The notes beneath the pieces were generated by a model that searched no databases, was not told where the DNA came from, and was given only the letters and a program-made list of their open reading frames with translations. Below are positions 68 to 32,419 of a stretch of DNA of 32,680 nucleotides, one piece after another. The DNA comes from Perkinsus olseni (lineage: Eukaryota). Numbering within the stretch: position 1 is the stretch's first letter; each line of letters opens with the position of its first letter. The stretch lies in the NCBI GenBank assembly GCA_013115125.1, contig JABANN010000400.1:1-32680 (forward strand), given 5' to 3'. The position numbers and the translations under genes were made by a program.

Positions 68-108
<41 letters not shown>

Positions 109-1642: not shown

Positions 1643-1653
1643 GCAGTCCATTG

Positions 1654-1675
1654 CACGGACAGTCCGTGACGGACT
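1654..1675. repeat. 22-bp excision-type scar, 8-mer CACGGACT
   Basis: CACGGAC AGTCCGTG ACGGACT, perfect. Confidence 0.9.
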
Positions 1676-2014
1676 CAGTACGCCACAGTCGGCGGCTTTT
1701 TTCAGAGGACCCTCTCCGGCACCGGCATTCCCACACTATTGTCCGGAATCTCACTCGGTCCCAGTAACCTTACTCTTCGAGTTTTTTGAGCTCATATTGG
1801 TGCCATGCTGTTATCCTATCCGTACTTTTGCTTAGTGAAATTCACTGAGACTCCAATCAGCGGGTGATACTTTTTATTCTTGCTTTTTCTTCTGTTTGCT
1901 TCACTTTCGACAACTTTTTCTAGGAGATGGATACGGATGATTATCATTCGGTTAGAGTTCTCACTATCGGGTTTTGCGGTCCCCGTCTGGATGACGTGAC
2001 GCCGCTTCTCTCAG

Positions 2015-2036
2015 CCCAGTAGTACTGGGCCAGTAC
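2015..2036. repeat. 22-bp excision-type scar, 8-mer CCCAGTAC
   Basis: CCCAGTA GTACTGGG CCAGTAC, perfect. Confidence 0.9.
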
Positions 2037-3572
2037 CACGCATCACGCCATTGCCAGTGTTGGCCAATGATCAGCTACTCACATTCCTCTTCTGGCTGAT
2101 GACGATTGAGCATTGATTGCGTGGTCCATTGACGGCGGCCCATATTAGTCGGTTCTTCCCTGCGCCTCGTGTGTCAGCGTGATATTCTCAGCATCCGTAC
2201 TTTGTTCGGGCCGAGCCATGGCCAGTCTCATCAGTCAACTCAGTGCTTAGACCAACCAAATATAGATTCGATTATGGTGGTCTCCGATCTTACACAAGTT
2301 AGCTTTCTCCGAATATCTCAGTTGCAATGAGTTGAGTACCGGGCGGGGTAACCCTAACACTTGCTAATAGGGAGAATTGCCTTCTTGGCACATGTTATCA
2401 ACATGTTTCTCTACGTTCGAAAAAGGTATATGACCAGCCGCAGGGTATGCCTTGCATACTGTTTTTCGAGTGTCTGAGTGTATTCAACGCTTGTTGCGTG
2501 CTCCGACGGTCGCGCTTTTACCGCACGAGACGATATTGGTCCGAGCGATGCCAATGTCGTCCCCATCGAGGAGAATATCTGCAGATACGGTACGTCCCCT
2601 GCATCCCATCGGCCGCGACAACTAACATGACAGGTCTGCATAATAGGACGCCAAATCTATAAGTGCTACACCCAATTGCTGCGTTATGAAGGTCTCCCCT
2701 CATCCTGATGGGCCATCAGGTCGGCGAGTCGAATGAACGCTAGCATTTTCAGGCTGAGAACACTACACGAGTAGAGGCACGGCGCTCATGTCAGCTTCAG
2801 ATGGCTCAGCAGTAACATAAACTCCCCGCACAGAGTTAACCAGATTGAGGAGCGTCTCCGACGGTTCACTGTGATTTTCGGTGTCGATAACGACGACCGT
2901 CGCGCTGAATGCGTTGACACGGTCGGGTTGACAGTGCATCAATACCATGTATTAATGAGATAACTCAACCATGTTAGAGTAACGAGCAAGTCAGAAGCGC
3001 TCGTGGCCGTTACTGAAATTCTACAATCATCAGTTGCCGACGAGTGTGACGGTGACGCGACGTCACCGGTGACTGCTCCTGGGTCTACCACATCTTTCGT
3101 CGAGGGTCTGGGCGAACAGCAGTAAACACACTGTATCCTGTCTTCTAATCAAGACCTCCAAGGTGAATCTCACTGACAGTATCACTCCCAAGATGGTGGG
3201 AGTGCCCGAGAATGTTTCCGTGGATCACGACACCTCCCGTCAAGAGACAGCCTCCTCCTAGCGCGGCCAATCTGCTAGTAACGCTGGGCAGGCGTGCAGG
3301 CGTTTGTAGAGACCTCAGATTCGATGATCGAATTTCGATCCTATTCAGAGCTATTCTATAGTAGTCTGTGCGACCCACTCTGCGGGTGGTAGGGGAAATT
3401 TGAGATGGTTCGTGAATCATTTGGCTCATATTCGAGACTCAGTCGATGCTTTTCCCTTGCGCCAGTTTCTCTCACGCAGCCAATCCGTAGAGTAGTAGTC
3501 GTAAGAGTAAGAGTAAGAATACCCGGTTTCACAACTACAGTAGCTTGGTTGCATCGCATGCAGTGAAGATCA

Positions 3573-3594
3573 CTCCAGTGACTGGAATCCAGTC
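3573..3594. repeat. 22-bp excision-type scar, 8-mer TTCCAGTC
   Basis: cTCCAGT GACTGGAA TCCAGTC, 1 mismatch; 13 bp upstream of the PLC ATG. Confidence 0.8.
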
Positions 3595-3607
3595 GTCAAT
3601 TCACTCC

Positions 3608-4664
3608 ATGGCCTTGCTGCTTACCTTGGTAATCCTTCAGTCGGCTACGACTTCTGGCCGGACTCGTGAATTTGGAGATATTCCCCTGAATGAATGGCCG
3701 ATGCTGATGTGAGTGCAGCGCCGTCACATCACCTGATAACCGGTCTCAGGTCTCACGACTCTGCCACTGGGTACATCTCCGAAAAAACTTTCCTATGGCA
3801 ATTATCTAAGACACAAAATGGTGATTTCACAGCACAGCTGAATTGTGGTGTCAGAGCGTTCGACCTTCGCCCTTTGTGCAACGCAGACGGCGTTTATATG
3901 CATCATGGGATTCAGCCCATCAAATATAGGATAGAAGATGTTGTAAAGGACATAATCACCTGGGCTGGTGAACATCCGAGGGAGTTCATCTCGCTGGTTA
4001 ACAGTCACTACTCTCCCAACACCGATGACTGTAAGGGCAAAGTTTGGCAGACTATGGCTACTCTGAATCTCATGCCATCTATTGGATCGGATGGGTCATG
4101 TGATAGGCTGAAGGGCCTCACCACCAATCAGGCTATGAAGATGACTGCACTTACAGGAGGTAATACACCGTCCTCAAATTATGTCCTCTCTTGCCGCTTC
4201 TCACGGAGCAATTCTCAGGTGGGCATGTCTTCGTTCTGGAGGGTGAGGGTATGTGCGTCGATGCCAACTACGATGCCTCTCTTACATGCTACCGTGAGAA
4301 TGGAGACTGTCTTAAGGGGTCACCCGGCAGTGAAGACATCAACAAAGAGTTGTTCCTTTACATCAATGAAACTGCCTCCAGGAAACCCAAGACTAATCTG
4401 ACTACGATCCAAGCGCATTGGCAATATGATTCGACGTCAGTAGAGAAGATGCTCAAGGCCGGGTCGAATATCCTGAATGATACGAAGCTCAGCGGCATCA
4501 ACAAGAAGCTCATTGGTATCATTCCGCAGCTGGAATATATCAATCTCCTCGAAGTCGATAATGCCTGTCTCGATGGGGTTGAATTGGCTGAATCTTTGAA
4601 GGCCCGGAGAGAGAATCTTGGCCAAGGTCAGGCCGGTTCTACAACCACAAGTGATAGCACTTGA
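3608..4664 (+). CDS. Secreted PLC-like phosphodiesterase (PI-PLC X-domain, TIM barrel); 3 exons 3608-3708, 3750-4159, 4219-4664
   Basis: Signal peptide MALLLTLVILQSATT; PLNEWPMLMSHDSATGY (first catalytic His); TQ...QLNCGVRAFDLRP; YMHHG (second His); EFISL. GT-AG introns 3709-3749 and 4160-4218 restore one frame. Confidence 0.85.
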
Positions 4665-5415
4665 CTCCTATCATAGAAGCCAATTATTTATTGATCTATT
4701 CTCTTTCCGTTGCCTTTTGTATTTACACCACTAGCTTAAGCTACCATACATCTCATCACTTGGTTTTTTCAAGACCAACCATTATCAATATTCTCTTTGT
4801 TTGTTGCGATACACCTTCTCCCTATGCAGTGTCACGGGGCTTATTAAGTTATAGAGGATAACGGAGCATTTAGATTGCCCTTGCGTTCAATTCGAACCTT
4901 TCACACTGTGTGTCAGTCACACACCGAGTCTCACTTCGACGTTGGGCGGGAACAAGTTTGCTGGACAGTGAAACCCTCCTTTTTTCCTGGTTCGGCAGCC
5001 GTTTCACGCGCGGGCGGATGCTGTATGACTGATGGCGATTATAGGCTGCATGCACTTTATGTGAGCGTATCTCCCCACCAGAGAAAAAAGGGTTTTAACG
5101 CCAAAAGAGACGTCATCATCAGTGGTAGCGGTATCCCAGGCTCTCACCACGACAAATGTGTTGAATGCGTTTGTCGTGGTGAGAGCCGTCGTGAGAGCCG
5201 TGGTGAGGGCTGATTGAAGGATTCATGATGGCAACCACAGAAATCGAGATAATCGGCCTCGTGGTCGGTGGTCCTTAGATTACCTCACGATGGCTATCAG
5301 GGCTCACGAATTAACGCAATGTCCCCATCTAAGCGAAGGTAGCAGAAAAGAGCGTCGGGCAATAGTACAGGTGAATGTTTGCAAATAATGGTCAATAAGT
5401 CTCTTCGTGTTCGTG

Positions 5416-8400
5416 TCAATCGTTATCACCTTCGGCTTTCATCTGTTGCTGGCCTGCGAACTCCCTTTCAATCGACTCTTTGGCTTGCCGTAGGAGATGC
5501 TCCAAGAGACCGCTCGGCACCGACGGTAATTTGGCGTTATCAACACTGAATGCCTCCTCCTTGTAGTCCGACTTGGGTGTCATCAAGCCCGAGACCGAGG
5601 CACTCCGGTTCAATCCAGACGGGCCGCATTTCCCAGCATGCCATTCAGACGCCACTGTATAAAGTGTGAAGGGCACAGTTGCGATGGCCGGGCCGAGGAT
5701 GACCCCACGGGCGCCGAACCAGCTGACACCGAGGCCGACGGCGACTGCGGACATCCACGGATTAGCATCGGGGATCTCTGAATAGATCGCCGGCCCCACA
5801 TACCACCAGACGAGGAAGTTGAGCACAGTGGCTATGGCACCGCAGACTTGCGCCATACCTCGGTCGTAGGAGAGGAAGATGTAGGGTACAATTAAGAAGG
5901 ACACTAAGCACGGGGATACCTGACCATTAGTTGGTGATGGAGTGGTATGAATGGGGACCTACCACTGGGAGAAGGCCAATAATAAAGGCGATGCAGGCCG
6001 GTATATAGGCCACTGGACAATCAAATACCTGAGATCGGGAAGCTAATGGACGAGCAAAGCACGATTTATCTCACAACCTACAGAGAAGACAAGCCACGTG
6101 TATACAGCATGGAATAGGGACATCTTAATTGCACTATAGAGTATGGCCTTGAGGGCCCTACGGACGATGTTGTAGAGGTAGAAGGAAGGGTCGATCACTT
6201 GTAGCACCTAATAAATAGGAGGAATACTTCACAGGCTGCCGAGGGCACGGATGTTTCATCAACAGCGGACAGCACTATGTGATATACGACCTCTTCCCCA
6301 CAGTGCAGCACGACCGCCGCTTGTCGCTTACAGTGGCCATGTAGTCATGCAGGCCTCCCTGCTCCGACTGTAGGAGGTAGTATAAAGCCGTTACAGCAAA
6401 GAAGAAGTGGAAGAGGGAGTCCACCAATGTCCCAACTATACCACTCACCACACTTAACGAAAACTGTATACCAGCCTGAGGGAGAACAACATCGAGGCAA
6501 GCGATGATACTGGTGGTGGTACTAGAGAGGCATGTCCGGAGGCTGCGAGGAGGTCCATGAGAAGGCTCCCGACGAGCGTAACAGCGCTGCTCTGCGTGGG
6601 GTTATCTTCCGTCTCTCGATCCACAGGGCCATGGGCGTTGGCACCCGCGTCGTAATACTGGCGTACCTGAAAACCCCCTCATCGCGACGTGTTGGCAGTT
6701 CATTGCCGATGACCTCCTTGTATGCCGACAGCAGCATAGATGGGGAAGTGACTAAAGACTTCAAGTTCCAATCCTGCAACAGCCGGGCAACCTCAGTAGT
6801 GTTGCCCAGTGGCACTGCCGGGTGACCACTGGTGCCCATAGTGTAGCTGTCATCGAAGATATCTTCAACCCCCTTCGCATAGGTGCATCCCGGGAAGGAT
6901 CCGACACACTGGAGGAACACCTCATCCCCAGCGGATGATGATGAAGACACATATGGTACTGAGGCGTTGGTTGCACCGCCCGATAGTATCTGAGCAGTGA
7001 CGTATAAGAAGGAGAACAGGTAGAAATTTCGGTAATGTCGTTGCTTTGTAATATATTTCTTTCCCCTGTCCATTCGGATGAGTGGTTTTCGACCTTACCC
7101 GGCGCCCTGAATTGCCAGGCTCGAGGGCCTTGAGCCTGGGCATGTAGACAAAACTGTTGAGAGGCACTACACTACTAATTTTCATCACGGCTACCAATCC
7201 CCATAGCGACAATTGATATCACGACAACCAAAGGGTATTAATTTTAGATTAATAATTTATCGTCCAACATGTTGAATAACCTGGCTTCCGCTGCGGCTGT
7301 TTGGGTCATGATTAGGCGACAGATAAGTCCTATGAATGAATGAATGAACTGGACGTCAGTTCGAGGTTTAGTAGGGTTCAATGAACAATTGGCCACGAAT
7401 TGTCGCGATCGCGTATTAAGTTCAGAATTGCCTCAGCTGAGTTTGTTAATGTGTTTGTTTGACAATCAGAAGGACCCGAGTTGAATCTAGGCAAATACTA
7501 ATAGGTTAATACTGGCAAATACTTAAATCTAGGTTAATACTGGTGCCAGTATTAACCCACTCAATCTCATATCCACGTGGAAGCTTCGCCTTTCCCGTGC
7601 GAGTCAAGTTGACTCAGTCAACAGTGTTGACTCAACACCTCTTACGCGGTGTCTTTACCACCGCCTTGCTCTCCTTATCGCCTTTCTCATCCCCTGGTAA
7701 CGCCTGTTTGGCGATGCTAACGACTCGCTGATGAAGTATCGGCGATAATCATCGACCAGGCGCGCGCTGACCCTCACGCACGAGCCGACAAAAGACATCA
7801 AGCCCTGCATCACTGCAGGCTCTAGTTGGGTTTTTCACCTCGTCTCTCAAGTCGGGAGGGGCCAGCCGTCCAGGCCAGTAGGCCGGAATGGAAGCACATC
7901 TAGCTTATGTACTTTTGAGAACCCACACGTCGTGAATCACGAGGTGTGGCTTCCCAATATCACGTTTCGTGATGCCGGCCGGGATTCCCGGCCCGCGGGG
8001 CGACTGTCGATTCGGTAAAGGCGGTCTTGATGGGCCCAACACGTCCGGCCCGGAAGTTCCGGGCAGAGAGCCTGAAGCAATCGCGCGCGATAGCCGCTTC
8101 GCACTCACCACAAAAGTCCTCATCGCATTTCGACTATCGGAAATTTCGATTCGAAATCACCATACCGGACTGGGTACAAACCCCAGTCAGCACTCCCACA
8201 GCTTGTGATAAAATTACTCCGCCTCCGGTATTCCGGGAGAATTTGTGGGCCCGGCCCACAGGCAAGCTCTAGCCCACTGTGGGCTGCCCTTAGCTCTTAC
8301 AGCTCAGCGTCCATTGCAGACTTGAAACGGTTGTTTGGTCGGACGGCCTCCCGGGAAATGTTTGGGCACGGGGTCCTAGTAGCGCCAACGGTAATTGCCC

Positions 8401-11193
8401 AACCCATTCTATAATCATCTGTGACACCGGTACTTCTCACCAGCTTCTCGGCAGCACTCAGCACAACGCCAAGGGATAGGTCACTTATTATTGGGTAGTT
8501 GTCGTTACACCATGGGTGCCCCGGCCCAACCAGCTGGTAGTAACCATCAGAGCTTTCAGCGTTTGTGAGTGGTCGGAAGGGGCGCCAGCCAACGGCGGGT
8601 CTACACCATACCCACAGTTGACATAATGCTGCGGCGCGGACGTCGCTGGACACTCAACCATTGTTCAACTGGTAGCTTGTCAGATGTGATATTTTGCACA
8701 ACCCTCTCCGTAAAGCAATCGAATAGACGAGTTTTCAAAATAGGTTTCAGGACTAGCAGGGCAGTAGTGAGCCGAGAAGTTTGACTTGGGACTCCCAAGT
8801 TGGGAGGGCCTCAGCATTAGATACGGAATATCACGAGGATTTCGAAAAGTTTCTTCTTCAAACTCGCCCTGTGAGAGTTTTTGGTGGGACAGGCTGTATT
8901 CTGCAAGTTAACAGCCTGTGTGATAGTATATAACAATATTCAGACCAGACAAGTACCGTCTATGTGATGAGAACTTCTCATTGAGAAGTAATTCTTATCC
9001 GATCTGAATGCCATATCTGAATGCAGCTGAGATTTTTCCAGCTCAGCCTGAGCTGGAAAAATCGAGTGAAGGATCACAGGCCATGACAACCGATCTATAT
9101 AAGTACCTCAGTTGACTCAAATCGATCTCCCAATCTTTCCTACCGTACCCGCAAACGGTGATGTATTACCATTTCGATGTAGTTGTAGAGATCCCTAGTC
9201 TTGGTGGTCACGGAGTCCGTCTCGATAAAGTGCGTCACCGCGTCACTCGCAGCTGAGTAGGCCAGCTCCGCGTACTGCTTGTAGGGATGAAGCGCCTGCA
9301 TCTCCAGCAGACTTCGCGCGCCACGGAATAGACTGCCAATGGCGTCCCAGAGAAAGGCAAATTCAAGGGATATATTATAACCGATGTAGGCCGCCAGGAC
9401 AGTACCCAAGACAGAGAAAAGGATCATCACGCTGGTGGCGGAGATGAAATCCGCGTTGGACTTTATGAAATTGTTGCATGCTCTACCACACCATGACCAC
9501 ATCATCAAGAAGCCATCATAGGAGGCCGTGAAGATGCGCTGGCTGATACGCCGTAGTGCGGTATGGGAGCCTCCATCCTCCGCCACTGAGGTGGGGTCGT
9601 CGATGCTGTCAGGATCCGAGGGCGGCCCTTCTGATGATGACTCACAACTCGGTGACTCAGACGCCGCGACCTGAACCAGAACACTACCTGCTGATAGTCA
9701 ACAAGGCATCACCACACGAACCGGTAAATGAGTTCGTCCGCTGTATCGCCCACCGCTTCTACTACCCTTTAGGTACTTCACTTTCTCGTACCATTTTCAA
9801 CAATGACCCCGGGATCTTATTTTTATGGTGCCTTACTGATGATACCACGACTATCGCTCTATCGTATGATTTGCGGCTAATAATATCAATACTCTCACTG
9901 GTATCGTTTCTGGAGCTAACTAGAGATATAAATTAGTACTATCATAATTCTGACGTGGCCAGACGCCCGACTTTCCCAGAAGTCCATGTAATGCGATACC
10001 ACAACTCGACCACCACCTGCGCACTTCGAGGCCCTTCCCCTCACTACACTATTATCATCATCGGGCCGGTCTTCCCTGCCAGCTGGAGTGGTACTCCGTT
10101 TCCCTCCACTGGCCTTCCTAGACCTACTCCTCGACCGACTCCGCCGCGTACTACTACCGGCTGTACTGCTCCTCGTTCTCCTTCTACTTTTATGCAGATA
10201 CAAGAACACTTTCCCGAGACCACATAGCCATCGCACCACCAAGACGGACACGGCGATGATGGTCACGTATCGGAATATAGCGCTGTATATTGCTGGGAAG
10301 GCCCAAGCAAACTTCCAAAAATAAAGATATAATATTACCGCGCGCCACAAAATTCTGAAGTACAGACTGCTACCACCATCGTCCCTCGGCAGTAGTACAT
10401 AAACCAGACAGCGATACAACACAGTGGCCGCGTCCCTGGCTTGCCGAAGAGACATCTTGAGGATGGCGCGAGAAGGGCTCAGTGGGGCTTCGGCTCCCCC
10501 ACCTCTGCTCTGCATTAGGGAAGGTGCGGCGGTGGACTCCTCGTCCTATGAAGAAGCGCCGATGTACTGGCTAGAGGAATCTAATGCCCACGCACGGCTC
10601 AGATACGACTATCACAAACAGGCCTTCTTTGATACCAATTTTTTCGTAATTCATGGCCGATAAATTTCCCCCCAACAACACGAACGACGAGCTCCTACCT
10701 GAGCGAATTGCGCTGTTGCAGAGTGGTGGCCGTCACGATCCGTTGATGTCGCGTCATCCCTGTATACCAGCACCGACCCACTAGGCCTCGACCTCCGGCC
10801 AGAGCGCCACTCCTGCGGGCTGCGTACCGTAATTTGTGGTATGTGAAATAAATTCAGCAACGCACTCTTGATAACTTGCTTCGGCGGGAACAACAAAAGG
10901 TACGCCACAATAACCCAGAAGAGCGTCTGCAGGAAGGGATACAGCAGCACATAATTCAGCCCCAGCAAAGCAGTAACACCGATGCACAGTAGAATGACCA
11001 AGTACGCCCGCACCCACATCGAGGGCTGCGCTGAGGCCCTGCTCGACTCGTACACTACACGAGTAAGACGCCGTTCTAAGCGGACCTCGTGATCATAGAG
11101 GGCCTCCGTGAAGGCATGCACTAGCTTGACATCATCCTGATACCTCTCGCCATCAGGCCGCCCTGCATCATGAGTGATGGAAGGCCCAGACAT
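5416..11193 (-). CDS. Multi-pass membrane protein, TMEM245 / AI-2E transporter-like; multi-exon with a ~1.9 kb intervening insert
   Basis: N-terminal part LNYVLLYPFLQTLFWVIVAYLLLFPPKQ (10651-11193 ORF), further TM exons at 9916-10515 and 9140-9586, luminal exon ~6520-6990, C-terminal AVGLGVSWFGARGVILGPAIATV typical of AI-2E/TMEM245. Joining both halves into one gene is an inference. Confidence 0.65.
7601..7638. repeat. Two overlapping 22-bp scars, 8-mers GAGTCAAC and GTCAACAC
   Basis: GAGTCAA GTTGACTC AGTCAAC (7601-7622) and GTCAACA GTGTTGAC TCAACAC (7617-7638), both perfect. Confidence 0.9.
8785..8806. repeat. 22-bp excision-type scar, 8-mer CTTGGGAG
   Basis: CTTGGGA CTCCCAAG TTGGGAG, perfect. 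Confidence 0.9.
8967..8988. repeat. 22-bp excision-type scar, 8-mer ATGAGAAG
   Basis: ATGAGAA CTTCTCAT TGAGAAG, perfect. Confidence 0.9.
9031..9063. repeat. Perfect palindrome, 16-bp arms, 1-nt centre
   Basis: GATTTTTCCAGCTCAG C CTGAGCTGGAAAAATC. Confidence 0.95.
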
Positions 11194-11397
11194 GATGACC
11201 TCATAGGATACTGAAGCGATACCACTCTCTCCAAGCTGGAGACTTGCCCCTTAGTGACTTGATAACACAGAGCCGACTATCTATGATACTGATGGAGAAA
11301 GTCTGAACACTCTATGCAAACAGTCTTGAAAAACAACAACATCGACAACAGGGACCATCTTATAATACTACCACACATCTCACTATAAATTACTAGC

Positions 11398-12835
11398 TTA
11401 TAGCTTCTCACCGTGAGCACCATCTCCAGGGGCCACAGCAATGGTATCGCACTTGATACCACTAGCCTTCTCGTATTTCTCAGCAACCTGCTTACAGAAA
11501 GCGTCCACCTTGTCGGCCTCAACTAGGTTAATAGTGCAGCCACCGAAGCCACCGCCCATCAGTCGAGCGCCCAGGAACCCAGGACAGCTCTGGGCTTGGT
11601 CAAACATGATATCAAGCTCCTTGCAAGAGTTGCCGAAATCATCGCGACTAGAAACGTGAGAGTCATTCATGAGCTGACCGAACCTCTTCATGTCTTTTTT
11701 CGAGATAGCATCCATGGCCTCGGCAACACGAGTATTCTCACCTGAAGGTACACAGTAGAGCCGCGACCCTCCCTCCCATCAGCCCTACCAATAATGTGAT
11801 TGGCTCTCTTCCTATCATCCTCGGACAAAACTGACTTCTTCACGTCATAAGTCTTGGTATCGATATCCCTCAGGAAGGGCACGCCAAGGGCCTTGGCAGC
11901 ACCGAAGCAGCACTTCCTCAGCTCGTTGTATTTACCATCCACGAGTTGGTGGGGGGCATGGGTGTTGCATAGAACAAAACGGACATCACCTAAGAGCACA
12001 CTATTCAACAGAGACCATCACAGCACCAGGCTTACCCTGCAGAGGGACGTAATCACAGCTGTTATCACGGCAATCCAGATGGACCAGCTGACCGCTCTTG
12101 CCAAAGGCAGAGGTGTACTGATCCAAAATACCACATCCCATGCCGACAAAATTGTTCCTGAAATGGCGAGAATAGGACGCGTCTTCTCATCAGTTGTGAT
12201 ACTTACTCAGCACTCTTGCAAGCCAAAACGACATCAAGTAGCTTGGCCTTGTACAACTTGCTATCGGGGCCGTCCAACTCTCGGATGAGGTTGGCAGTAG
12301 CGAGCTCGATGGCAGCAGAGGAGGACACACCAGCACCTGATAATAGAACCACATTTCCCACACTTCAGTGAACAATAATGCCTACCAACGGGGACATTAG
12401 AGTAGATACATGCCTGGAAGGCAGGGACCTCGTAACCCGCCTTTCTCAGCTCAACGATGACGCCCTTCGAGTAGTTAGCCCAGGAGTTCTCCCCATCATA
12501 TTTGGTATCATCATCGAGATCAAACTCTACCACATTCTTGAACGCACTGCTGTGAAGGCGCACCTTGTTGTCGGGAGACTTGGCACCGACAACGACGGTG
12601 TAACGATCAATGGCAGCCGATAAGACAAAACCCTCATTATAGTCGGTATGATTACCGAGGATCTCAATACGACCTGATACGGCAGGCACGATAGTAACAA
12701 CAGAATTCAACACTCCACGCCAACTCTACCTGGAGCAGCGCCGAAGACTGTTGGCTTCGACCCAAATCTTTGCTGATAATCCTTAGCAGCGTCTACTATA
12801 AGGGAAGCAGCAGGAGTCTTGAGGGTACTGCTCAT
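11398..12835 (-). CDS. galK: Galactokinase (GHMP kinase); 6 exons 12835-12730, 12673-12386, 12336-12207, 12157-12036, 11989-11789, 11741-11398
   Basis: APGRIEILGNHTDYNEGFVL, NVPVGAGVSSSAA (GHMP ATP loop), AENNFVGMGCGILDQ, LDCR, GARLMGGGFGGCTINLV; five GT-AG introns of 46-56 nt. Confidence 0.95.
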
Positions 12836-13544: not shown

Positions 13545-13616
13545 GGCTGTGTGGTCTAGTGGTATGATTCTCGCTTAGGGTGCGAGAGGTCCCGAGTTCA
13601 ATTCTCGGCACAGCCC
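13545..13616 (+). tRNA. tRNA-Pro(AGG)
   Basis: Acceptor stem GGCTGTG/CACAGCC; D-arm TGGTCTAGTGGTATGA; anticodon arm CTCGC-TTAGGGT-GCGAG; T-arm CCGAG-TTCAATT-CTCGG; 72 nt, no intron. Confidence 0.97.
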
Positions 13617-13891
13617 TCCCTTTCATTACAGTAGCTCAGGCACACAATATCTTAGAGTTAGAGAAACTTGCATCTGCTCCTCATACTCCGTCCTAATGAC
13701 TTACAAATGTTCAACGACTCGATAAAAACGCGGCATACACTCTAAACTATCTCCTGGGTCACCAGTAACTGAAAGTAACTCACCCTCTTCATGATGAATT
13801 ATACATCCGGATGCAGACTGCTACTAGAAAAATTCCTATGCATTCACGTTCGGAATACAATCGATAAAGAGTAGCGGGAGAGCCCTATTAT

Positions 13892-21540: not shown

Positions 21541-22993
21541 AGAACAAAAATCTACATTGTGCAACTAATGTAGTAAACGACCTTCGTCTCATCCTGTAAT
21601 AACGTATCCCACTGAGGCCAGCGAAGCCCTTATTTCGATCGCAGTCAACTCTGTTCCACTCGGAACCAGTACAGCAGGCCGAGCAACCGACCGCCGGTCG
21701 GTTGAACCGAGCACGCTGAGAGTCCGGGAGACTCGTCACACGTCCCCCTTAGACAATGTCTAATAGACATCAGCTCGCTATAGCCTAACCGGGAACGTTC
21801 TGAATAATCCTTCGCCATACCACCACTGGGGCTATCCAGTCCCCAAGTGTTCCCGACAGCGCCGACCTTCTGTGGACTCAGTAACGATATGCTCCCCAAC
21901 GCCCTTGCCACGCAGCATTTCTCCAGTCGACGGCACACCATTCGAAGACGTCAGAACACTGACCAAAAAGGGTTCTGGCTGCTCTCACAGCACAGCTGGA
22001 AGCACGAACCAAACAGCAGCCTCGTGACGGCTGAGAAGAACACGAGGAGCCGCCGTGATCTCAGAGGCCTTCTACCACACTCCTGTTCGAACGAAACATC
22101 AAAGACAGTGCAAGGAAAGCCTTCCCTACGCAGTCAGGAGCGACAAGAGAAAAAGAGGATGGACGACCGTCCCGAAGTGAGTAAATTATAAGTGTGATTT
22201 TATTACAGCCGATGCCTATCCCACGCAGAGCACGCTATCGACATCGATGTTCCAGGAACCCACATTACAAAGGAGGCCGAGATTATCTCGCAACTTACCA
22301 CCGAAAGGCCGCGGAGAATCACCCGAAACATCAACGCTGAGGGCAAAGCGAGCAACGGTAATAGTATAATACGACGGCTGAGCACCACTACACAAGTGCA
22401 GCGGGGCTGAGCCAAAGTGACAGAGAAAGAGCAGCTCAATTAAGCAGCCACTGGCGCAAATACTGTAAAACTGGCATCAGTACAGCCACCAAGAATAGAA
22501 CCAAGGACCTTCCGGTTCAAAGCATAGTGGAGTTGAACCATCCACGCCTCCACCAAACTTCCACTGGCGACAACACCGTGCACAGATGCAAGGGTAGCAT
22601 CAGAAATGGCGGACCCTATGAGAGTCTACCTCGTCTAGTTGTAGATGTGCGCAATCAGTGGCTACTAACAGACCATCCCTCTCGTTGTTCTGACAGAGCA
22701 GATCAGCACAACAGAAAAGAACATCATTGTGGACGAGTAGAGGCCTACGCCTCCACCCGACCTATGACCAGTAAGGACTAATACGACAACAACGACGGTC
22801 ACCGAGTGATCGTCGTGTTAGACCAACCTCTGTGAGCAGTGTAATGACAACAGTAGCAATAATAATCATCAATATACCCACAGCACACAGAATAATTATC
22901 CACCATCACTTTACCATATTACAAACATTCGGGCCTCTCGAAAAAACGAGCCAACTGAAACGATGGACATAAGCCTCACCAAGCGTCCAGCAA

Positions 22994-24583
22994 CTATGCG
23001 TCATCAACCCCGCTTCCAGCCGACGTACCTATCACAATCGATCACCAAGGCGAGCGCTACTTACACCCTCCCAACCCTCACTTGCATCACTATGAAGGCG
23101 TTGCCTAATGCCATTGCCTTGTTTGTTGCCTCTAGCACTTCGGCCGGGTAAAGGCTGTTTGACGACGACGTTGTTGCTCTTCATCGTTCTGGCCTCCTCA
23201 GGACACATAACGTAAGTTTTGTGAGACTCTTCAGCGACAATGCGCGGTAGTACGGAGCTTAGCTTTGACAGCTGCTTCGACAAATCGTCCACCGAGGGAA
23301 CCTGGAGGATCCGTGCCATCAATCAACCCCACTCTCATAGTACTGATTTCATCTTAACGCATTTGACGTAGCTTCTCGGTAAGAGCCTCGACAGCAGTCT
23401 TGCCGGGTTCAAGTCGCATCTACTGTTTCCTACCAGTACCTACACCAACTGGACGAGTGCGCCGCAAAATACCGTGTAAAATTTCTCACCAGACTAACAT
23501 GCCCGCCATCGGTACGCTCACGCCGGCACTTCAAGGCACGAGCCATTGAACGGGCTTTACTAGCCAACCCGATGGTACTCTTAACTTCCACCCTTGGGTT
23601 AATACCATCAATTAGGGGTAGAATGCCAGAGGAGGATCTACGAAAAAACACGACCAGTTCTTGCTACAGCCAATCGGGCAATGATTCGGCCATTATCCGC
23701 CTCAGCCACGATTTAAAATCTCGACTTAGCATCATTCCGAGGGTTTGCAATTCACTAAGAGTGTACTTACAAAATTGCCGGAGGACAATCTTTGAAAAAC
23801 AAGATCAGATCGTTCGCAGTGAACGGTTCAATCGCCACGCCAAGCTATGAGTATTAATCAAATTGCAATCACCCGCAGTCAAAACGCAGAACAGCTCTTC
23901 AACAGTATGCTTACAAAATTTCCGATAGATTGACTAAGCCTGGCCACCTCTCCTACCTCCGGGCACACTTATAAACCCAGGCCGGATCGGCAGCAGTTAC
24001 GATATGGACCTTGCTGCCCTTACTCATATCCACTGCTTCTCGAAGAACTCTCTCAGCAGCCTCTAAGCAGGACCTGGCACCAGCATATTCTATAACAGTG
24101 GCGTACCCATTCAGCCACTAGCGAATCGCTCTCCGAGCCCGAATTTTTATCTCAACAACTAATCCCTCAAGACCTTACGAGAATCTACAGAAATATTTTA
24201 AGGGAAAGTTTGATGCACTGGATATAGTAAATTTTGTCCGCAGTGATCCCAAATATCCTTTAGTCACTCCCGTACTATGTTCAAATTTCTGTGTAAATAT
24301 ATCACGAGAAAAAAGTCGCAAACAATCGGAGAACTGATTCGAGCGGCACTTACAAAAAAGCAGCCTCAGCCTTGTCTGCCTCCGCCTCATCGAGAGTGCT
24401 GTGCTCAAGGAAGGCTGTAGTAGGAAATAAGGTATCATCCCAGTCGAATATGAATAGGGATGGTCGCCCCCGTATAGGGGGCTCAATACTGCCCTCCTCC
24501 GCGCCATCCTCACAACAGCACAACGAATCACTGTGACCACCAACAGGGGCACCAGTCACAGCTGATGATGACGCTGACATCAT
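22994..24583 (-). CDS. HAD-like protein of the DWDDT type (uncharacterised protist family); multi-exon
   Basis: First exon PSLFIFDWDDTLFPT (HAD motif I DxD); later exons LFCVLTAG, SKARSMARAL, YVKCVKMK|VPSVDDLSKQLSKLSSVLPRIV. The stop near 22994 is inferred. Confidence 0.65.
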
Positions 24584-24685
24584 GAAAGAAAGAGGCCCAA
24601 CTAGCAGAGAACAGTATCATAATCCCGTATCATCAGAGATAACACAACGCGACAGCGTCGAGACTATCATGTATCATGAGGACCA

Positions 24686-27600
24686 TCATCCTAGGAGTAA
24701 ACTCCGTCTCCTCTTGTTGGACTTAGAGCCCTCAGAAACCTGTGAATGCCTGTGACTAAGACGAGCCCCACTTAAGCTCTTGCATTTTTAGCTGCTGATA
24801 CTCGAGCGCTTCAGACTCTAGGGACGTCCCGTAGAAAACGCTCTGCCCCATTGAGTAGTCGAGCTACCATTAGTAGTCCACTATTAGTGATCTGCAGTAG
24901 TTTTATTTCGCCGCACAAGTTTGCCGAAGTTTTGACTAATTCGTCGAATTCAGACAGCGCCAAGTCACTATGATGCATCCAGTACGCCCACACCGACCGA
25001 AGCAACCAGCACCGCCTGACTACGTCCAGCGTTGTGTCGATTTCACGAAGTTCCTGGAAGGCCGGTATCAAGAGTTGAGGATTGGACTCGGCCAGTTCAG
25101 TAAACTTCTCCATCGATATCTTAGCTCCAACCGGCAGCTTCACTTCTCCATAAAGTACCTCAGCTCGCCGTTCTAACCATGCTTCAGATATGTCACCTAA
25201 ATTGCCGCCGTTGAAATCGACAGTGACTGCAAGGCCGTACGTGGTCCGGGTTCGGGTACTGCTACTCCTCAACCGGGAAAAATATCACGACAAACACATA
25301 AAATTGACATTTTGCGGCCCAGCGTTCAACATGCGTCATCAGCCCAGCGCACAACGTGTACTACCAGGCGAGTTGGCCCTGAGAATTTTCAACATCTCAG
25401 CCTTGTCAATGAAGCCACTGCCGTCCTCATCGAACATCATGAAGGCAAACTTCAACTTGTCCTTCGGAGGTGCATCGGTATGGGTGGATAACCCAACTAA
25501 AAGGATAACCATAGACACGAGTATTGACAAAAGTCGAAAAACAGCTATGTCATACCAGCTAGCTAGACAGAATAGCAGTATGTCCAGCCAACTTAGGAAC
25601 CATCCCACGACGATCTTTTCGTGTGGATTAAACGCTATAAAGTTTTCGCATCAATCTGATGCTCTCAAACGTGTCCATATTTCTGCTACTGAATTCGCGC
25701 CTGTAGCTAACCTACACCAAAGCACCGCTCAGGCCCAAGAAACTGGACATCCTCGAGTGTAAAACAAGCGAGCTTCGTGATGACATCCGGAAATCACGCT
25801 CGCCGTGAAAAATCCACGTCATACCAGTATGCATCGAGCCCCCTAACTAACCTATGAATTCCTTAACATCTATTTCCCCCGATCCATCAGTATCGAATAT
25901 GGCAAACAGCCGCCGAAGCATCGGAGTATCCTCCTTCAGAAGTGCCTACTGTTGTCGCTACGTGGTGTGATGAATATCCTACTGCAACACCTTCCTGAAT
26001 TCCTCGTAGTCTATCATTCCCGAGCCATCCTTATCGATCTCCTGAAACTTGTGAAATATCTTTTTGATCTGCGATGGCTTGACGCTCGACCCAGCCTCGC
26101 TCTCGGTGAAGGCAGTAAGGATATCACGCCTGGAATCTCGCGTTAAACCGCCGACAAATCGGGCTGAAGAGAGACCACTATCATCTCGGATAATGCTCCA
26201 GGATAATTCAACAATCACCTTCTTTGACTTGATTTTCCCTCTGCTCTACAGCACGCTCGAACTCCACTTCGAAGTCGGGATTATACCCGTACCTATCAAC
26301 GCCGTCATTCGCGGGTCATTTCAGGTTACTGAAAAATCCCGAACGGAAAAGTTCATGTGCATAAGTGGTAGTAGAATCAGCGGTAGGAGTAGTCCTAGTC
26401 TCAGGAGTCCTCTAAACGGTTGGTTGAAGTCGGTTAAGGAAGATTTTGAGGATCGTGCTGGGGTATGGAGGCGCGTTCCGAAGGATGATATGAATAGAGC
26501 CCCATGGCACAAATTCACCCTTATTCGAGGTGCGCACGTCCCCTAGATGGATATAAGCGCCTATTGACTGAGTAGCGTAGCGGGCCGATCAAAATAAGCC
26601 TAAACTACGAGCAAGCCCCAGTTATCCTAGTGATAGTATCGGAGCAATACGGCATCGTTACGCTGGTATCTTGATCGTTACTTAGCATGATAATCCCACA
26701 GCGACATCCTCTGCTTCGTCCTCTCTTCCAGTTCCACATTGCGGAATAGTAATGACGGCTTCAAAAACAACTCTGCGAACTCTCGGTAACTGATAAGTCG
26801 GGTAGCACATTCCCAAGGAAGGTCACCGGGCGAGCGCTACTATGAGCCAAAACTCGCTCGCCCAAGCGCATGACAAAAAGCGCGCGCCCTAAATCGTCAG
26901 ACAGCACTTAACGTAGCCGCTGCCGTTATTATCGACCATCCTGATCATCTCTTGTATCTCTTCGGTAGTGACTGCTTCTCCCGACAGAGCTAGTACTCGC
27001 CGTAACTGCGAAAAGCACTAATGATGAGTGATTAATGGTAGGAATTGATTTCTCAGAAACAGACCACCACTTCTGTCCTACAATTTGACGCTGGCACGAC
27101 GCCCAGCCAGTGGCTGGCAGCCACTGTGATGCTCACGGCTACGCTATCGAGCGGAATAAGTCGGTCTAATTGGCATGATTGATGACAACCCTGGGAAGTA
27201 CCACGCAGAGATTCGTAGACATAATTTCCATTAATCTGCGATTTTACTAAGCAGATGCTGACTGGCCTTTGCCCCTAACAGTGAACACCGGTAAAAGTCT
27301 AACTAGGCCAGAACCGGCGTTGGGCTACTTGAACTCACACGCGAACTGTCCCCTCCGCCTATGAACAACATAGACAGTGCTTCACGGTAACTCACGTCAG
27401 ATTCATCAAGATAGCCGTTGCCGTCGGAGTCAATACTCCTGAATGCTTCAGCGATCTAAAGTGAACCCGATCACATCAATCGCCGCAGGGCTGTTCTCGT
27501 TACCTGTTCATTGGTGAAAAGATTCTCTTGTATCCCCGGTATCAGGAAGGCGTCCAGAACGGAAGGATCTCCAGCTCGACCGTTGCGCTGAACAGACTCA

Positions 27601-27759
27601 CATCACCACTCACGCGCCCTTGGGGCCCGCAAACAACAAAACAGAACCTACGAAGTAAATGGATGAGCTAATCTCGCTAACTTGGCGCATCGGAATTGGT
27701 AATTTTGGCACTACAGCCTTCTCTTCGGAGGTTTCTGAGGTATCGGAGTCCGTGCTCAT
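24686..27759 (-). CDS. Multi-EF-hand Ca2+-binding protein (calmodulin-like pair plus calcineurin-B-like C-terminal part); multi-exon
   Basis: Five canonical loops: DSDGNGYLDESD (~27400-27430), DNNGSGYVNYRE (~26770-26940), DKDGSGMIDYEE, DTDGSGEIDVKE, DEDGSGFIDKAE; KLKFAFMMFD. Start MSTDSDT at 27759 and stop at 24686 are inferred. Confidence 0.75.
27103..27124. repeat. 22-bp excision-type scar, 8-mer CCAGCCAC (intronic, EF-hand gene)
   Basis: CCAGCCA GTGGCTGG CAGCCAC, perfect. Confidence 0.9.
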
Positions 27760-28799
27760 GACCAAAGAGTCAACCTCCACCTGTAGGCTCTTTCCGGAAA
27801 TCGGGAGGTGGCTCTCTGCTTCCTGCCAGTGGTGGAGGCAGTTGGGCCTGTTTCATGGGTGAACGGTTACCGTCACGGAATATCGCGGGAAGGGAGGCCA
27901 GTGAACTGAAGTCGTGAGCTTGCGCTAAAACGTCATGATGATACGATGGCAGCTCTTTTTCGGCTTCGAGTGCCCGACGCTGTATTAGGAGAGAACCTGT
28001 TCGTAACACGGAGGGTAATAACTCTAAATTTGCGTGCGACTGGCTCAGTAAATTACGAGACTGAACACAAGAGCGATCTCAGGGGGTACACACTTGTCAA
28101 TGTTAAGCTTTTTGAGCATCGTGGAGAGATGAAATAGTATGAGAACCGTGATGTACATAATATGCGGACATCAGCCCTGAAAAAAGTGCATGATCGAAGT
28201 TTCTTTCATTTGGAGTAGCTACCACACGGTAAATCCAGCATCACAATACGCAATGTGATGGAAAAGGTCAAACCTGGGATCCTAAGGTGGTTCCAGGACC
28301 CACCTCTCTGAGTGGGCCTCTCATGGACTACTGCAACGCTCGAACCGCAAGGGCAAGCTCTGTTAGGACGGCCTAGTAAGTACGAGGATCCCGATCAGAT
28401 CACGCTTTTCGTGGCATTGTCATGGATAGAGTTACTCCTAAACCCACCGACGCCAAAACATTTCAGGTATCTAAACATCATTGTTAAGTGTCCATGTAAC
28501 TTTCTACCAAGTAAAATAGTCGGACTATGATAGTGTAACGCTAGGCACCCCTCTGTCCTCGTCGTCATTGTGCACATACAGACTGAAACTCATTGAGCTA
28601 CATCATCACCGCAAAACTAAACGGCGGCTCTCGTATCATCCGACTTGACCATCTTAGCAGAATATGAAAGGTCTGCGCCTCGGGCCCGGTAACCATGCGT
28701 AGTAACTGTAGCCATTTGACGGGCAGGAGGCTAACAATACAGGCTCATGGATGAGGAGTCACGCATCAGGCTCATCGTGCGCATTCTACAATGACCCAT

Positions 28800-30510
28800 T
28801 ACAGCCAACGCACCCGAGTTACCGTCATGAACACAGTGGAAACACTTGGAGGTAACAAACGCAAGACGGTTGCGGAGATTGGCGCCGGCTATTAGGCGCC
28901 GTTAATCCTTCCGCAGCCTCGTTGGGAACCTTCTACAATGCAATTTCGGTAGTAGAACTCTATAATGAGAATACACTGTAGGTGAAAGATTAGCCGGGAG
29001 GGCAGCAGCCGATGCTCGGCACCTCTTCCGATGAAAGCGAAGGCGGAGCAACTCTCGAGCTGCCGGATGCGCTCGAAATCTCCAGGCCATGATAAGTAAG
29101 CGCCTCTACCAGCTGTGGATCAAGAGCGGACAAAGGGGTCATTATGAAGGAACATGCCGCCTGTGATTGGTTTTAAGCCTGAGCCTTACAGTGAGAATCA
29201 ATAGCTTCGCTGACAACTTGATCCATTCCGCCGCAGCAGTCCCTTGGGCTACTTTCCCTATAAGTTTACCCGTGAGTGGGCTACGATTACGGCTCTGGGA
29301 ACAACTTCGATGAGAATATCCCAAGCAGGTCCTGAGCGAGCCACTTGCAAGGAGGTTAATTCGCCTAGAAACGACGCTTCGCGGAAATATTGAGGAATGA
29401 GACATCCGCAATTCTGTTGTTTCTGTCCACCATTCCCCGCCTCCAGTGACTGGAGGCTCCAGACCTTCAGACCAGAAGTAAGTTAGGCCGTAAGTTACGG
29501 CGCCGTTGATCGCTTCTCCTCTTGTCCTTCCGCCAGTCGATTTCAAGCCAGTCATTCTCTTCTGCCTCAGACAAGCCAGACAATCCCATTCTGTCAGGGA
29601 AAACCACCTTGGATGCATCAAGCGACGAATCGAATGAGGAGTTCAGTTCTACACCAGCAATCCCAGACGTAGCCGCAGTTTCAACTTTTCAGCCATAAAC
29701 CCTCCTAGGGAGCGATGAACCTCTTCAACCTGGAAATGCGGCGAATGAGCAGTAGCAGACGTCGCTAGCGAGGAAGGAATGGGCCACTAGTAGTGGTCAT
29801 GATGGCAGGATGACTGAACGTGAGGCTTTACAATTACGAACACACGTCGCCTAAGTGATCAGGCCCACCAACCCTGCTTGGAAAAAATTCTTCGTCAACG
29901 TCTTCCGAAGACCGACTGAGGGACGGAACTCTTCTAGCGACATTGTCCGACAATGATTGCCGCGGCGGAGGTATGACAATGCCGCGGCTGTCGCTGCGAC
30001 AACAAGCGGTAGATGACGAGGCATTCTCCGATCTGATTTTGAGGGCCGGCCGGAACATCTTCTCTCGGCTCGGCCTAAAGCGTAGTCCGATTTGAGTGGT
30101 CCGAAAACCGCCATCTACTAAACGCTGTTAGCCTGGATCCAAGCTGCGTATATCTCCGATATGAACGCTTCGCCAATCAAACTCAGAATGGCAAACGCCG
30201 ATGCCAAGTTGACCCGTTGAGGCAGACCTTCTAAACTGACTCCCACCTCACTTTCAAGTCTCTAGAATACCGCTCCTCTGGCCTCTCTTTCTCCGCAGCA
30301 CAGCGATCTATCTCCCATTTGAGCATATCCGTGTATTTCATCGAACCCTCCCCCTGGCAAGCCCGCTGTAATTCAGAAGGCATCCTGTCGAAACGTGTCC
30401 GAAATTTCAGTACTTCGCTAATCGACGCATTTCCTATTGATAACCCAGAAGGCCCAGCAGGCAAACGGCGAGAAGCTGTGTATCGGATACATTGTGCCCA
30501 AAAACAGCCG
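28800..30510 (-). mobile_element. Heavily decayed retroelement-like (gag/pol-like) relic
   Basis: Intronless, stop- and frameshift-ridden peptide fragments (YTDMLKWEIDR...RDLKVRWESV; ENDWLEIDWRKDKRR; VVSRRINLL); no intact RT/IN motif or LTRs seen. Confidence 0.3.
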
Positions 30511-30596
30511 GTCTAGTTCATAACTCATAGCTTATGATTCATGAGCAGCCTGCGCAGTGCGTAGTACTCACCCCTCACTCATCATCTGGGGTGATA

Positions 30597-30618
30597 CCCC
30601 AGGCCCTGGGGCCCAGGG
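30597..30618. repeat. 22-bp excision-type scar, 8-mer CCCCAGGG
   Basis: CCCCAGG CCCTGGGG CCCAGGG, perfect. Confidence 0.88.
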
Positions 30619-30704
30619 GTATTTCAAATCTGTGACATTATAAATGAGCTTGTACTGATTGCACAGTAATTCACTGACGGCGAGCAGGCTCTTCATATTA
30701 TGAA

Positions 30705-30753
30705 GGGAACTAGGGACTACTTTATGAAGTTCATAAAGTAGTCCCTAGTTCCC
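30705..30753. repeat. Perfect palindrome, 24-bp arms, 1-nt centre
   Basis: GGGAACTAGGGACTACTTTATGAA G TTCATAAAGTAGTCCCTAGTTCCC. Confidence 0.95.
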
Positions 30754-31265
30754 CGTTCTTGTATCTTCCGTTCGCAGTCGTGATGAATGCCCTTGAGGTA
30801 CGCAACTGAAGTGTGCAGCATGTCGCATGAACTATTACAGACTTGAGAGAACTCATTCATGCTTGTGGAGACATCGCGGAGACACTAGCCTATGCCAATT
30901 CGGAATGGGAACAGTGCCCAGTGGCCACCACTGGTGGACCAAGAGTCATGCGAACACAGATGCAGGTTTACCTTCTCTTCTTGCTGATCAGTCTTTTGGA
31001 TCGATTGATCGTGGCTCCGAGAAATTCTCAATTGGCTCCTCCTATAGCAACCTCATAATGCTTTGATACGTTCCCAGCTTCCGTGCCGTCCACCTAAGAC
31101 TCAGCTAAGCGTCGAGCTGAATCGTACAGCTGATTTTCTCCCAGGGTGCGAGAGTAAGTGCGTCGGACTGTCAGATTTGGACTCACTTGCGTAGCAATCT
31201 TGTTCCTCAGCCGCATCGCTATTCTCACAAGCAGTCTTAAAACGCTTCTTTCGGGAATGGAGGGT

Positions 31266-31287
31266 CTCTCACAGTGAGAGTCTCACT
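31266..31287. repeat. 22-bp excision-type scar, 8-mer CTCTCACT
   Basis: CTCTCAC AGTGAGAG TCTCACT, perfect. Confidence 0.9.
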
Positions 31288-31308
31288 CCCATCTTTTCAA
31301 CTTGAAAA

Positions 31309-31330
31309 CTACAAAGTTTGTAGTACAAAA
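31309..31330. repeat. 22-bp excision-type scar, 8-mer CTACAAAC
   Basis: CTACAAA GTTTGTAG TACAAAa (A-run expanded before the final C). Confidence 0.75.
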
Positions 31331-31496
31331 ACATACGACATAAAATGAATATGTCCAACATCGTCGGCCGAGATACACCATTACCTCGTTCTAGAAAATC
31401 CTTATAAGATTATCCTTTCCTTTGGATATTGTAGCGAACTAGCTTACATTAGCTAAATTGCATTAAATGCAAGCCAGGAAGGTAGCTATATCAGCC

Positions 31497-31524
31497 TGCT
31501 AGTCACTAGCAGTAGCAGCTAGTG
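31497..31524. repeat. Excision-type scar, 8-mer TGCTAGTG, with a 6-nt internal duplication
   Basis: TGCTAGT CACTAGCA gtagca GCTAGTG. Confidence 0.7.
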
Positions 31525-31951
31525 GGATCTCCTATTGTTCCGATAATATTCTGGCGGAATAATTTCGCAGAAGATACTACCCGAGGCCAGCGGCTGAACT
31601 CTACTCTGCCGAACTGAGGGTTTCCCAGAGTTTCTGTCGTCGTAACTGTGTAACCTTGTCGCCAGACGGAGCCGAAGTTCTTCTGTTATTGTCTCGCCAC
31701 GAGACTCTCGCGCATTTTGGCTCCCTCAGCCTTATCCTGCTCATCTGCGTAGCGAGCCATTTGTTCCTGACCACATGCCGAGAAACGCGTTCGTGGTGAC
31801 TTGACACGTACAATCGACGATCAAGCGGCTCGAGCGGCTCAAGCAGCTCGGCTTCCTTTTGCTCAGAGAAAATTGCTCCAATTATTTTATCACTTCTCGT
31901 AGCCTCGGAGCGTATCTCATCGGCAAGCTCATCATTTCTCATCGGCATTTC

Positions 31952-31973
31952 TCATCTACTAGATGACATCTAA
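31952..31973. repeat. 22-bp excision-type scar, 8-mer TCATCTAG
   Basis: TCATCTA CTAGATGA CATCTAa, 1 mismatch. Confidence 0.78.
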
Positions 31974-32397
31974 GAGTACCTGATGCCGATGCGGTTCCGG
32001 TCGGTTTACTTTGGCTACGCAGAGACAGCTGTCTTGCGAGCCGCGGTTTCCTATACATATTATAATAAGCGCCAAATATCAATGTCAGAAGAGTGTGTCA
32101 CTCAGTGTGAGAAGGGATCGGTCAATCACCTTCCGCAGTGCGGCCTTCTCTTTCAAAAAACGACAGACTGGATATTCTTTCTTTTGACGCTTCAGCCGAA
32201 TGCTTTGCCTGAGGTGCACAAGCACATCAAGCCTTCAACTTGAAAGAGCCTTGTTGAACGCGATGAGCACGAAGGATGAAAGCGCGCGCTTCCGTTCCGT
32301 GGTGAGCGTGCAGCTCTCCTTTCGTCATCATTGATGAGACACCAATATACCAAGTATACTTCTTATACCATTCAGACCTCTATTTGGCGCGTGAGAC

Positions 32398-32419
32398 CGC
32401 TCATCATGAGCGGCTCATG
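32398..32419. repeat. 22-bp excision-type scar, 8-mer CGCTCATG
   Basis: CGCTCAT CATGAGCG GCTCATG, perfect. Confidence 0.9.

Follow-up and report, generated by a model that had tools for sequence, protein, structure and literature searches.

Elements of the hAT superfamily make 8-bp target duplications and leave flank breaks that are capped by hairpins (PMC4763223). The excision footprints of Ac/Ds in plants, Saccharomyces cerevisiae and Candida albicans carry palindromic P-nucleotides centred on the complement of the element-adjacent base; palindrome arms reach up to 20 nucleotides (nt) in budding yeast, with microhomology at 88-89% of junctions, and in C. albicans 128 events gave 28 footprint types, whose P tracts did not exceed 3 nt (PMC5873905). 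The preferred target is nTnnnnAn for both Hermes (PMC10368747) and hobo (PMC11226609), and nnnTAnnn for the Buster clade (PMC3499496). Here, we describe a 22-bp pattern, hereafter the scar, that recurs in a 32,680-nt stretch of Perkinsus olseni DNA (GenBank contig JABANN010000400.1; hereafter the window, meaning the whole stretch that was analysed). Each scar consists of the first seven bases of an 8-bp target, the reverse complement of the entire target and the last seven bases of the target, i.e., N1-7 + rc(N1-8) + N2-8. These 22-mers are probably the donor-site footprints of a cut-and-paste transposon with an 8-bp duplication and flank hairpins, excised by the hAT mechanism of the Ac/hobo/Hermes type.

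The scars resemble Ac/Ds footprints in being palindromic around a single base and in their apparent origin from an 8-bp duplication, which flank hairpins would explain, and they share with Hermes and hobo the 8-bp duplication, the nTnnnnAn preference and, presumably, the hairpin-capped flank breaks. Unlike the heterogeneous footprints of Ac/Ds, inversion of the whole 8-mer makes up 12 of about 14 perfect footprints that retain the duplication here, and unlike the experimental Ac/Ds footprints, the scars are fixed in a natural genome at about one per kb.

The scar geometry was scanned for target lengths of k = 3-13 against 20 dinucleotide-preserving shuffles. At k = 8, 12 copies were perfect and 18 had no more than one mismatch, against none in the 20 shuffles, whereas k = 6, 7 and 9-13 gave no perfect copy and k = 3-5 stayed at background level, so that the sharp peak at k = 8 alone predicted by an earlier note on this DNA is present within the window (12 perfect vs. 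0 shuffled). Every position of the window was also scored on the 14 base-pair constraints of the pattern (null: mean of 10 shuffles), and loci satisfying at least 11 of the 14 were counted as the scar set. Loci at 14/14, 13/14, 12/14 and 11/14 numbered 12, 6, 7 and 13, compared with shuffle means of 0, 0, 0 and 0.9, respectively, which amounts to about 38 scar loci in 32.7 kb (approximately one per kb) where about one is expected by chance. Exact 6-mer direct repeats peaked at an offset of 14 (38, vs. 19-20 at offsets 13 and 15), the offset called for by the 7+8+7 geometry. As a control, no perfect scar was found in 201,020 bases of 80 unrelated, mostly AT-rich loci, which were metagenome contigs found with the P. 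olseni EF-hand protein at 51% identity or less and had no close relative among them.

The ten coordinates that the earlier note had called perfect (1654, 2015, 7601, 7617, 8785, 8967, 27103, 30597, 31266 and 32398) all proved to be exact 22-mers. Its four near-perfect copies stand in part as described: those at 3573, 31309 and 31952 each satisfy 13/14, and the one at 31497 is instead a perfect scar split by a 6-bp tandem duplication. Further copies absent from the earlier list are perfect at 3319 and 21749 and at 13/14 at 8042, 8136 and 29941. The scar pattern is thus confirmed as real, and it is stronger than first claimed. The perfect scars, all at 14/14, are the following:

1654-1675: perfect scar, target CACGGACT
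2015-2036: perfect scar, target CCCAGTAC
3319-3340: perfect scar, target ATTCGATC
7601-7622: perfect scar, target GAGTCAAC, overlapping the scar at 7617 by 6 nt
7617-7638: perfect scar, target GTCAACAC, which lies 2 bp from that of 7601 in the inferred original sequence
8785-8806: perfect scar, target CTTGGGAG
8967-8988: perfect scar, target ATGAGAAG
21749-21770: perfect scar, target TTAGACAT, closely upstream of a phytochelatin-synthase-like gene
27103-27124: perfect scar, target CCAGCCAC, intronic in the EF-hand gene, between exon matches 27351-27590 and 26910-27008
30597-30618: perfect scar, target CCCCAGGG
31266-31287: perfect scar, target CTCTCACT
32398-32419: perfect scar, target CGCTCATG

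The scars with one substitution, all at 13/14, are:

3573-3594: one-substitution scar, target CTCCAGTC
8042-8063: one-substitution scar, target CTTCCGGG
8136-8157: one-substitution scar, target ATCGAAAT
29941-29962: one-substitution scar, target CATTGTCG
31309-31330: one-substitution scar, target CTACAAAC
31952-31973: one-substitution scar, target TCATCTAG

Decayed scars, all at 12/14 (a class for which none is expected in shuffles), are:

713-734: decayed scar
7238-7259: decayed scar, AT-rich and less certain
8271-8292: decayed scar
23811-23832: decayed scar, intronic in the EF-hand gene, between exon matches 23956-24072 and 23487-23642
30550-30571: decayed scar
31547-31568: decayed scar
31691-31712: decayed scar

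Candidate old scars, all at 11/14, of which about one in the 13 is expected by chance, are:

1826-1847: candidate old scar
4901-4922: candidate old scar
7978-7999: candidate old scar, with an odd palindrome (arm 8) at 7977-7993
13786-13807: candidate old scar
19963-19984: candidate old scar
28302-28323: candidate old scar
28515-28536: candidate old scar
30478-30499: candidate old scar
30524-30545: candidate old scar
30924-30945: candidate old scar
31294-31315: candidate old scar that abuts the one at 31309, with an odd palindrome at 31294-31308
31858-31879: candidate old scar
32324-32345: candidate old scar

Two more loci carry a length change within the scar:

31497-31524: scar with a later 6-bp tandem duplication, target TGCTAGTG; a perfect 22-mer once one 6-nt copy is removed
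32091-32110: scar whose middle 8-mer contains a CA repeat shortened by 2 bp, target GAGTGTGA

Structurally, each scar comprises two 15-nt palindromes that overlap, and the centre base of each palindrome is unpaired. Across the whole window, odd palindromes (arms of 7 or more around one centre base) numbered 45, against 2.2 expected, while even palindromes, which have no centre base, were at chance level (2 vs. 2.1 expected) and spacers of 2, 4 and 6 were likewise unenriched. A hairpin origin had been predicted to leave a complemented base beside the element, and the restriction of the excess to odd, single-centre palindromes bears this out; it fits a hairpin nick placed one base into the flank. 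Zhou et al. are said to have located, in 2004, the first Hermes nick one nucleotide into the flank. In the perfect scars, 6 of the 24 palindromes (counted from the palindrome listing) have arms longer than 7, the rate at which one extra base pair is expected by chance; the end of the inverted block therefore coincides exactly with that of the 8-mer duplication.

We inferred the target 8-mer of each scar, counted bases symmetrically and compared them with a background of 0.25 in a binomial test. T2 or A7 occurred at 13 of 24 positions in the targets of perfect scars (P = 2 × 10−3), at 20 of 36 for scars at 13/14 or better (P = 1 × 10−4) and at 38 of 76 for scars at 11/14 or better (P = 3 × 10−6), a bias that matches, and is supported as, the nTnnnnAn preference of Hermes and hobo. 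C1 or G8 was found at 18 of 36 positions, a post hoc observation that was not pre-specified. As a separate observation, the scars at 3573-3594 and 29441-29454, about 26 kb apart, have a 14-nt string in common and both have CTCCAGTC as target, which may be a coincidence or reflect a favoured target.

Geometry, length specificity, single-base centres, target bias, absence from sequence with coding evidence and graded decay are all directly visible in the window, and the earlier proposal of hairpin excision of the hAT type sits well with the k = 8 peak, the coding depletion, the odd palindromes and the nTnnnnAn bias. Under this mechanism, insertion would duplicate the target N1-8. Upon excision, the left flank hairpin would read N1-7 and then c(N8)...c(N1), where c denotes the complement, and the right flank hairpin would be its mirror image, reading c(N8)...c(N1) and then N2-8. 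If both hairpins were opened 8 nt or more from the tip, or nicked and resected, they would unfold into 3' tails complementary only in the 8-nt reverse complement of the target; the tails would anneal there, the flaps would be trimmed and the nicks sealed, giving N1-7 + rc(N1-8) + N2-8 with a net gain of 14 bp. The observed 22-mer is the product expected from annealing through the inverted 8-nt duplication, and we infer deep hairpin opening with microhomology annealing, rather than classical end joining, as the repair route. Microhomology-mediated end joining forms its junctions where a short homology bared on both ends anneals, and it does not depend on Ku or ligase IV. In V(D)J recombination, RAG hairpins are opened by Artemis, P tracts are 1-4 nt long and the coding joints are made by classical end joining. 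Such joints would be like the scars in the covalent hairpin on the retained DNA, the off-centre opening and the short palindromic additions; they have no flanking direct repeat and therefore no 8-nt homology to anneal. Deep opening and microhomology both have a precedent in budding yeast, because the arms of Ac/Ds palindromes reach 20 nt there and microhomology is so frequent at its junctions (PMC5873905).

Several observations weigh against a hAT-type origin. The T2/A7 signature is carried by only about half of the targets, and the C1/G8 bias (18/36) is unlike Hermes, whose target ends are G1/C8. Neither an element nor a transposase was found in the window: no intact element is present in its 32.7 kb, with no 8-bp direct-repeat pair flanking 12-nt inverted termini, and the occupied-site search (duplications of 7, 8 or 9 bp with 12-nt termini and at most two mismatches) returned only one chance-like 7-bp pair. 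A hAT transposase comprises a DDE catalytic core, a hAT dimerisation domain and a BED finger, and none of the 145 open reading frames (ORFs) of at least 70 amino acids in the window matches any Pfam transposase family. Finally, in the papers on Perkinsus transposons found by our literature search, the elements named for Perkinsus marinus are of the Dada, Merlin-related and Tc1-like kinds, and none of these papers reports hAT from that species.

The earlier note had also claimed one dominant repair outcome, and this holds among products keeping both copies of the duplication, where 12 perfect 22-mers compare with two candidates bearing short P-nucleotides. We scanned for footprints of the form N1-7 + a left + b right P-nucleotides + N2-8, with a and b from 0 to 8, and only a + b = 8, i.e., the 22-mer, was clearly enriched (12 vs. 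0.0); the class a = 1, b = 0 reached 4 against 1.4. Precise excisions and deletions are invisible to such a scan, and 'dominant' therefore applies only to visible outcomes. The two candidate classical short footprints are:

3340-3357: candidate classical short footprint, target CCTATTCT, 3+1 P-nucleotides (1 vs. 0.1 expected), abutting the scar at 3319
32564-32580: candidate classical short footprint, target TCGCCTGA, 1+2 P-nucleotides (1 vs. 0.1 expected)

Three rare loci appear to be variant products:

30691-30753: variant product, target CTTCATAA, laid out as N1-7, rc(N), 16 nt, rc(N), N2-8 and then the 16 nt again in reverse complement
9026-9063: variant product, inferred target GCTGAGCT, in which 16 nt of the right flank recur as an inverted copy with c(N1) at its centre and the left target copy is cut to GCTGA (5 nt)
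29439-29465: variant product, target CTCCAGTC, with a left palindrome arm of 9 that runs 2 nt past the target, followed by an imperfect right copy

The locus at 30691-30753 was matched by the two-hairpin scan with a spacer of 16 and has 24-nt arms around a 1-nt centre that are 100% complementary; it may be read as both hairpins having unfolded (over 24 nt in the right-hand one) and having been joined without annealing through rc(N). The readings of 9026-9063 and 29439-29465 as variant products are post hoc. All three would fit the same two-hairpin intermediate, as un-annealed or one-sided products.

Scars are unevenly distributed in the window. Coding evidence, defined by homology or Pfam, covers 5,243 bases (16% of the window, most of which is without a gene model), and none of the 38 scars overlaps it, where about six would if placed at random, in a test that covers only part of the window. 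The claim that scars lie outside exons and are depleted in coding sequence agrees with this count, and two of the scars (27103 and 23811) are in introns of the EF-hand gene. Density varies among the following segments:

7172-9139: 4.6 scars per kb, upstream of a minus-strand gene
27835-32680: 3.5 scars per kb, upstream of the EF-hand gene
1-3693: 1.6 scars per kb, upstream of a plus-strand PI-PLC-X-like ORF
12836-20714: 0.25 scars per kb, without homology evidence
9140-12835: no scars, a compact gene block

Most scars have thus accumulated in intergenic DNA that resembles promoters, where they reach 3.5-4.6 per kb. They also recur at sites 1-2 bp apart, and several abut or overlap: the targets of 7601 and 7617 lie 2 bp from each other, the scar at 3319 and the candidate footprint at 3340 share one base, and three scars (31266, 31294 and 31309) fall within 65 bp. 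From perfect to most decayed, the loci form a series of 12, 6, 7 and 13, a continuum that argues for real, old genomic events. Since similar numbers of scars are unchanged (12), bear about one change (6 and part of the 7) or bear more changes, they point to steady accumulation with decay and not to a single burst. From about ten scars per substitution class, we roughly infer one new scar per approximately 150 point substitutions in the window.

Footprints of another or undescribed superfamily with 8-bp duplications and flank hairpins, whether MULE-like, a relative of Dada, P or Kolobok, or Merlin-like, are an unlikely source of the scars. Such a source would accommodate the failure to find a hAT domain in the window, and Dada and Merlin-related transposases are documented in P. 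marinus whereas hAT transposases, in the available parts of that literature, are not. Flank hairpins are likewise made by the MULE Muta1, whose duplications of 8-9 bp guide its repair; however, more than 90% of its excisions in yeast are precise and scarless, made via the direct duplication (PMC5499845), unlike the scars, which use and keep the inverted copy. Scars are imprecise by definition, and the duplications of MULE/Mutator-type elements are 8-10 bp long, typically 9 bp, while k = 9 and k = 10 gave no perfect copy. Dada of P. marinus makes 6-7-bp duplications and targets tRNA and snRNA genes (PMC3706591), whereas k = 6 and k = 7 likewise gave no perfect copy, the scars lie in unrelated intergenic DNA and the one tRNA gene of the window is unscarred. 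A 5-bp duplication of the Transib/RAG type finds no counterpart either, with one perfect copy at k = 5 against 0.25 expected. To our knowledge, no hairpin chemistry has been described for Merlin, which we count against this alternative. Finally, both the T2/A7 bias and the offset of one base characterise the Ac/hobo/Hermes group, in favour of the hAT-type origin.

Could the scars have arisen without any transposon, through a template switch in replication, or snap-back synthesis in the course of end joining, that copied a short stretch in reverse before resuming? Template switching and synthesis-dependent microhomology joining are known to make short inverted repeats (PMC2943611), and the locus at 21684-21714 resembles a longer zig-zag of this kind, with 10-nt arms and mismatches. 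Yet such events have no fixed length, and the length is exactly 8 in 12 of 12 perfect events with none at k = 6, 7 or 9-13; arbitrary sequence cannot snap back without a covalent hairpin, and neither a target-base bias nor single-base centres would be predicted. We therefore hold this explanation to be very improbable. The locus at 21684-21714 itself consists of an odd palindrome, its arms 10 nt long, and then a direct copy that is imperfect (7/10), approximately k = 11 with mismatches, which places it outside the 8-bp rule.

A sequencing or assembly artefact is scarcely credible, given that mutated and indel-bearing copies exist and that the scars avoid sequence with coding evidence and show a target-base bias. 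Sequencing data speak against it indirectly: of the 31-mers sampled from bases 1-10000, a share of 0.98-0.99 is present in each of six runs from two studies, and the ten strong scars in that part would make up an estimated 5% or so of these words; some of the six runs may themselves have supplied the window. Two other runs held a 0.18 share of the same 31-mers, some of the runs had 18-55%, and none of these shares was used as evidence on strains or alleles.

Three other readings were discarded. A 24-mer with zero offset was dropped with even palindromes unenriched (2 vs. 2.1), and fill-in of a staggered break was dropped as it would yield tandem rather than inverted repeats. A short palindromic insertion element was ruled out because every scar derives from its own target.

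The window, intron-bearing eukaryotic DNA of about 50% G+C, belongs to the nuclear genome of a Perkinsus species, judging by its sequence. A galactokinase exon shares 90% identity with the protein of P. marinus ATCC 50983, and a P. olseni protein aligns with the minus-strand EF-hand gene (22997-27834) over about 14 exon segments at 73-100% identity. The other genes located are:

20730-21536, minus strand: phytochelatin-synthase-like gene, by homology to a P. olseni protein model
13545-13616, plus strand: tRNA-Pro(AGG) gene, the sole Rfam/ARAGORN match in the window, free of scar or insertion

The phytochelatin-synthase-like and EF-hand genes are about 1.5 kb apart, and residues 1-119 of the 865-residue P. 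olseni protein model P0001 match the former while residues 213-865 match the latter; this public model may fuse two neighbours. Among the 145 ORFs, Pfam identified two with a YccF membrane domain (best E = 5.9 × 10−10) and one with a TLDc domain (E = 8.7 × 10−5). A poly-C tract of about 67 bases, broken by GTTTT, occupies positions 49-125 and may be low-complexity or assembly-prone. Between two convergent genes, at 5139-5207, lies a structure of another type than the scars: a perfect 18-nt inverted repeat (5139-5187), its loop 13 nt long, and after it 2.8 copies of a 12-bp tandem repeat. Lastly, about 18 kb (9000-27000) show strongly negative G+C skew and positive A+T skew, coinciding with minus-strand genes, which may reflect a transcription-associated strand asymmetry.

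We found no report of the 22-mer or of a genome-wide stereotyped hAT footprint in a literature search covering main texts and few subscription journals, and no description of such scars in the Perkinsus literature. The 22-mer may already have been seen as a minor product in experiments. What is known is the excision chemistry; what is unusual is how uniform and how dense the product is, and the lineage in which it occurs. Footprints of DNA transposon excision are normally too short and too varied to be recognised in a genome, and the history of cut-and-paste elements is therefore inferred from their remaining copies alone. Since the footprint described here is long (22 bp), stereotyped and sequence-independent, past cycles of insertion and excision become countable, datable by decay and mappable, making the scars an unusually readable fossil record of transposon movement.

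We suggest, tentatively and with more doubt than confidence, that Perkinsus has or had a hAT-like family whose turnover is so high that footprints far outnumber copies, and whose excision hairpins are opened deeply or resected and then annealed, instead of being opened at the tip and joined by classical end joining. If this were true, such repair would mean that nearly every visible excision writes the same 22-bp palindromic scar, a genome would hold tens of thousands of footprints (extrapolated from approximately one scar per kb in the window), and excision scars would be a major class of indels and a steady source of hairpin-forming motifs in promoters, leaving a countable and datable record of transposon flux offered by no other known genome. 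If confirmed genome-wide, the scars would provide a direct measure of transposon flux, and excision would be a mutational process of appreciable size in a shellfish parasite of economic importance. Such confirmation would also point to an unusual handling of hairpin-capped breaks in perkinsids, which are close to dinoflagellates and apicomplexans, and would suggest that hAT-based tools would work in Perkinsus, with predictable junctions.

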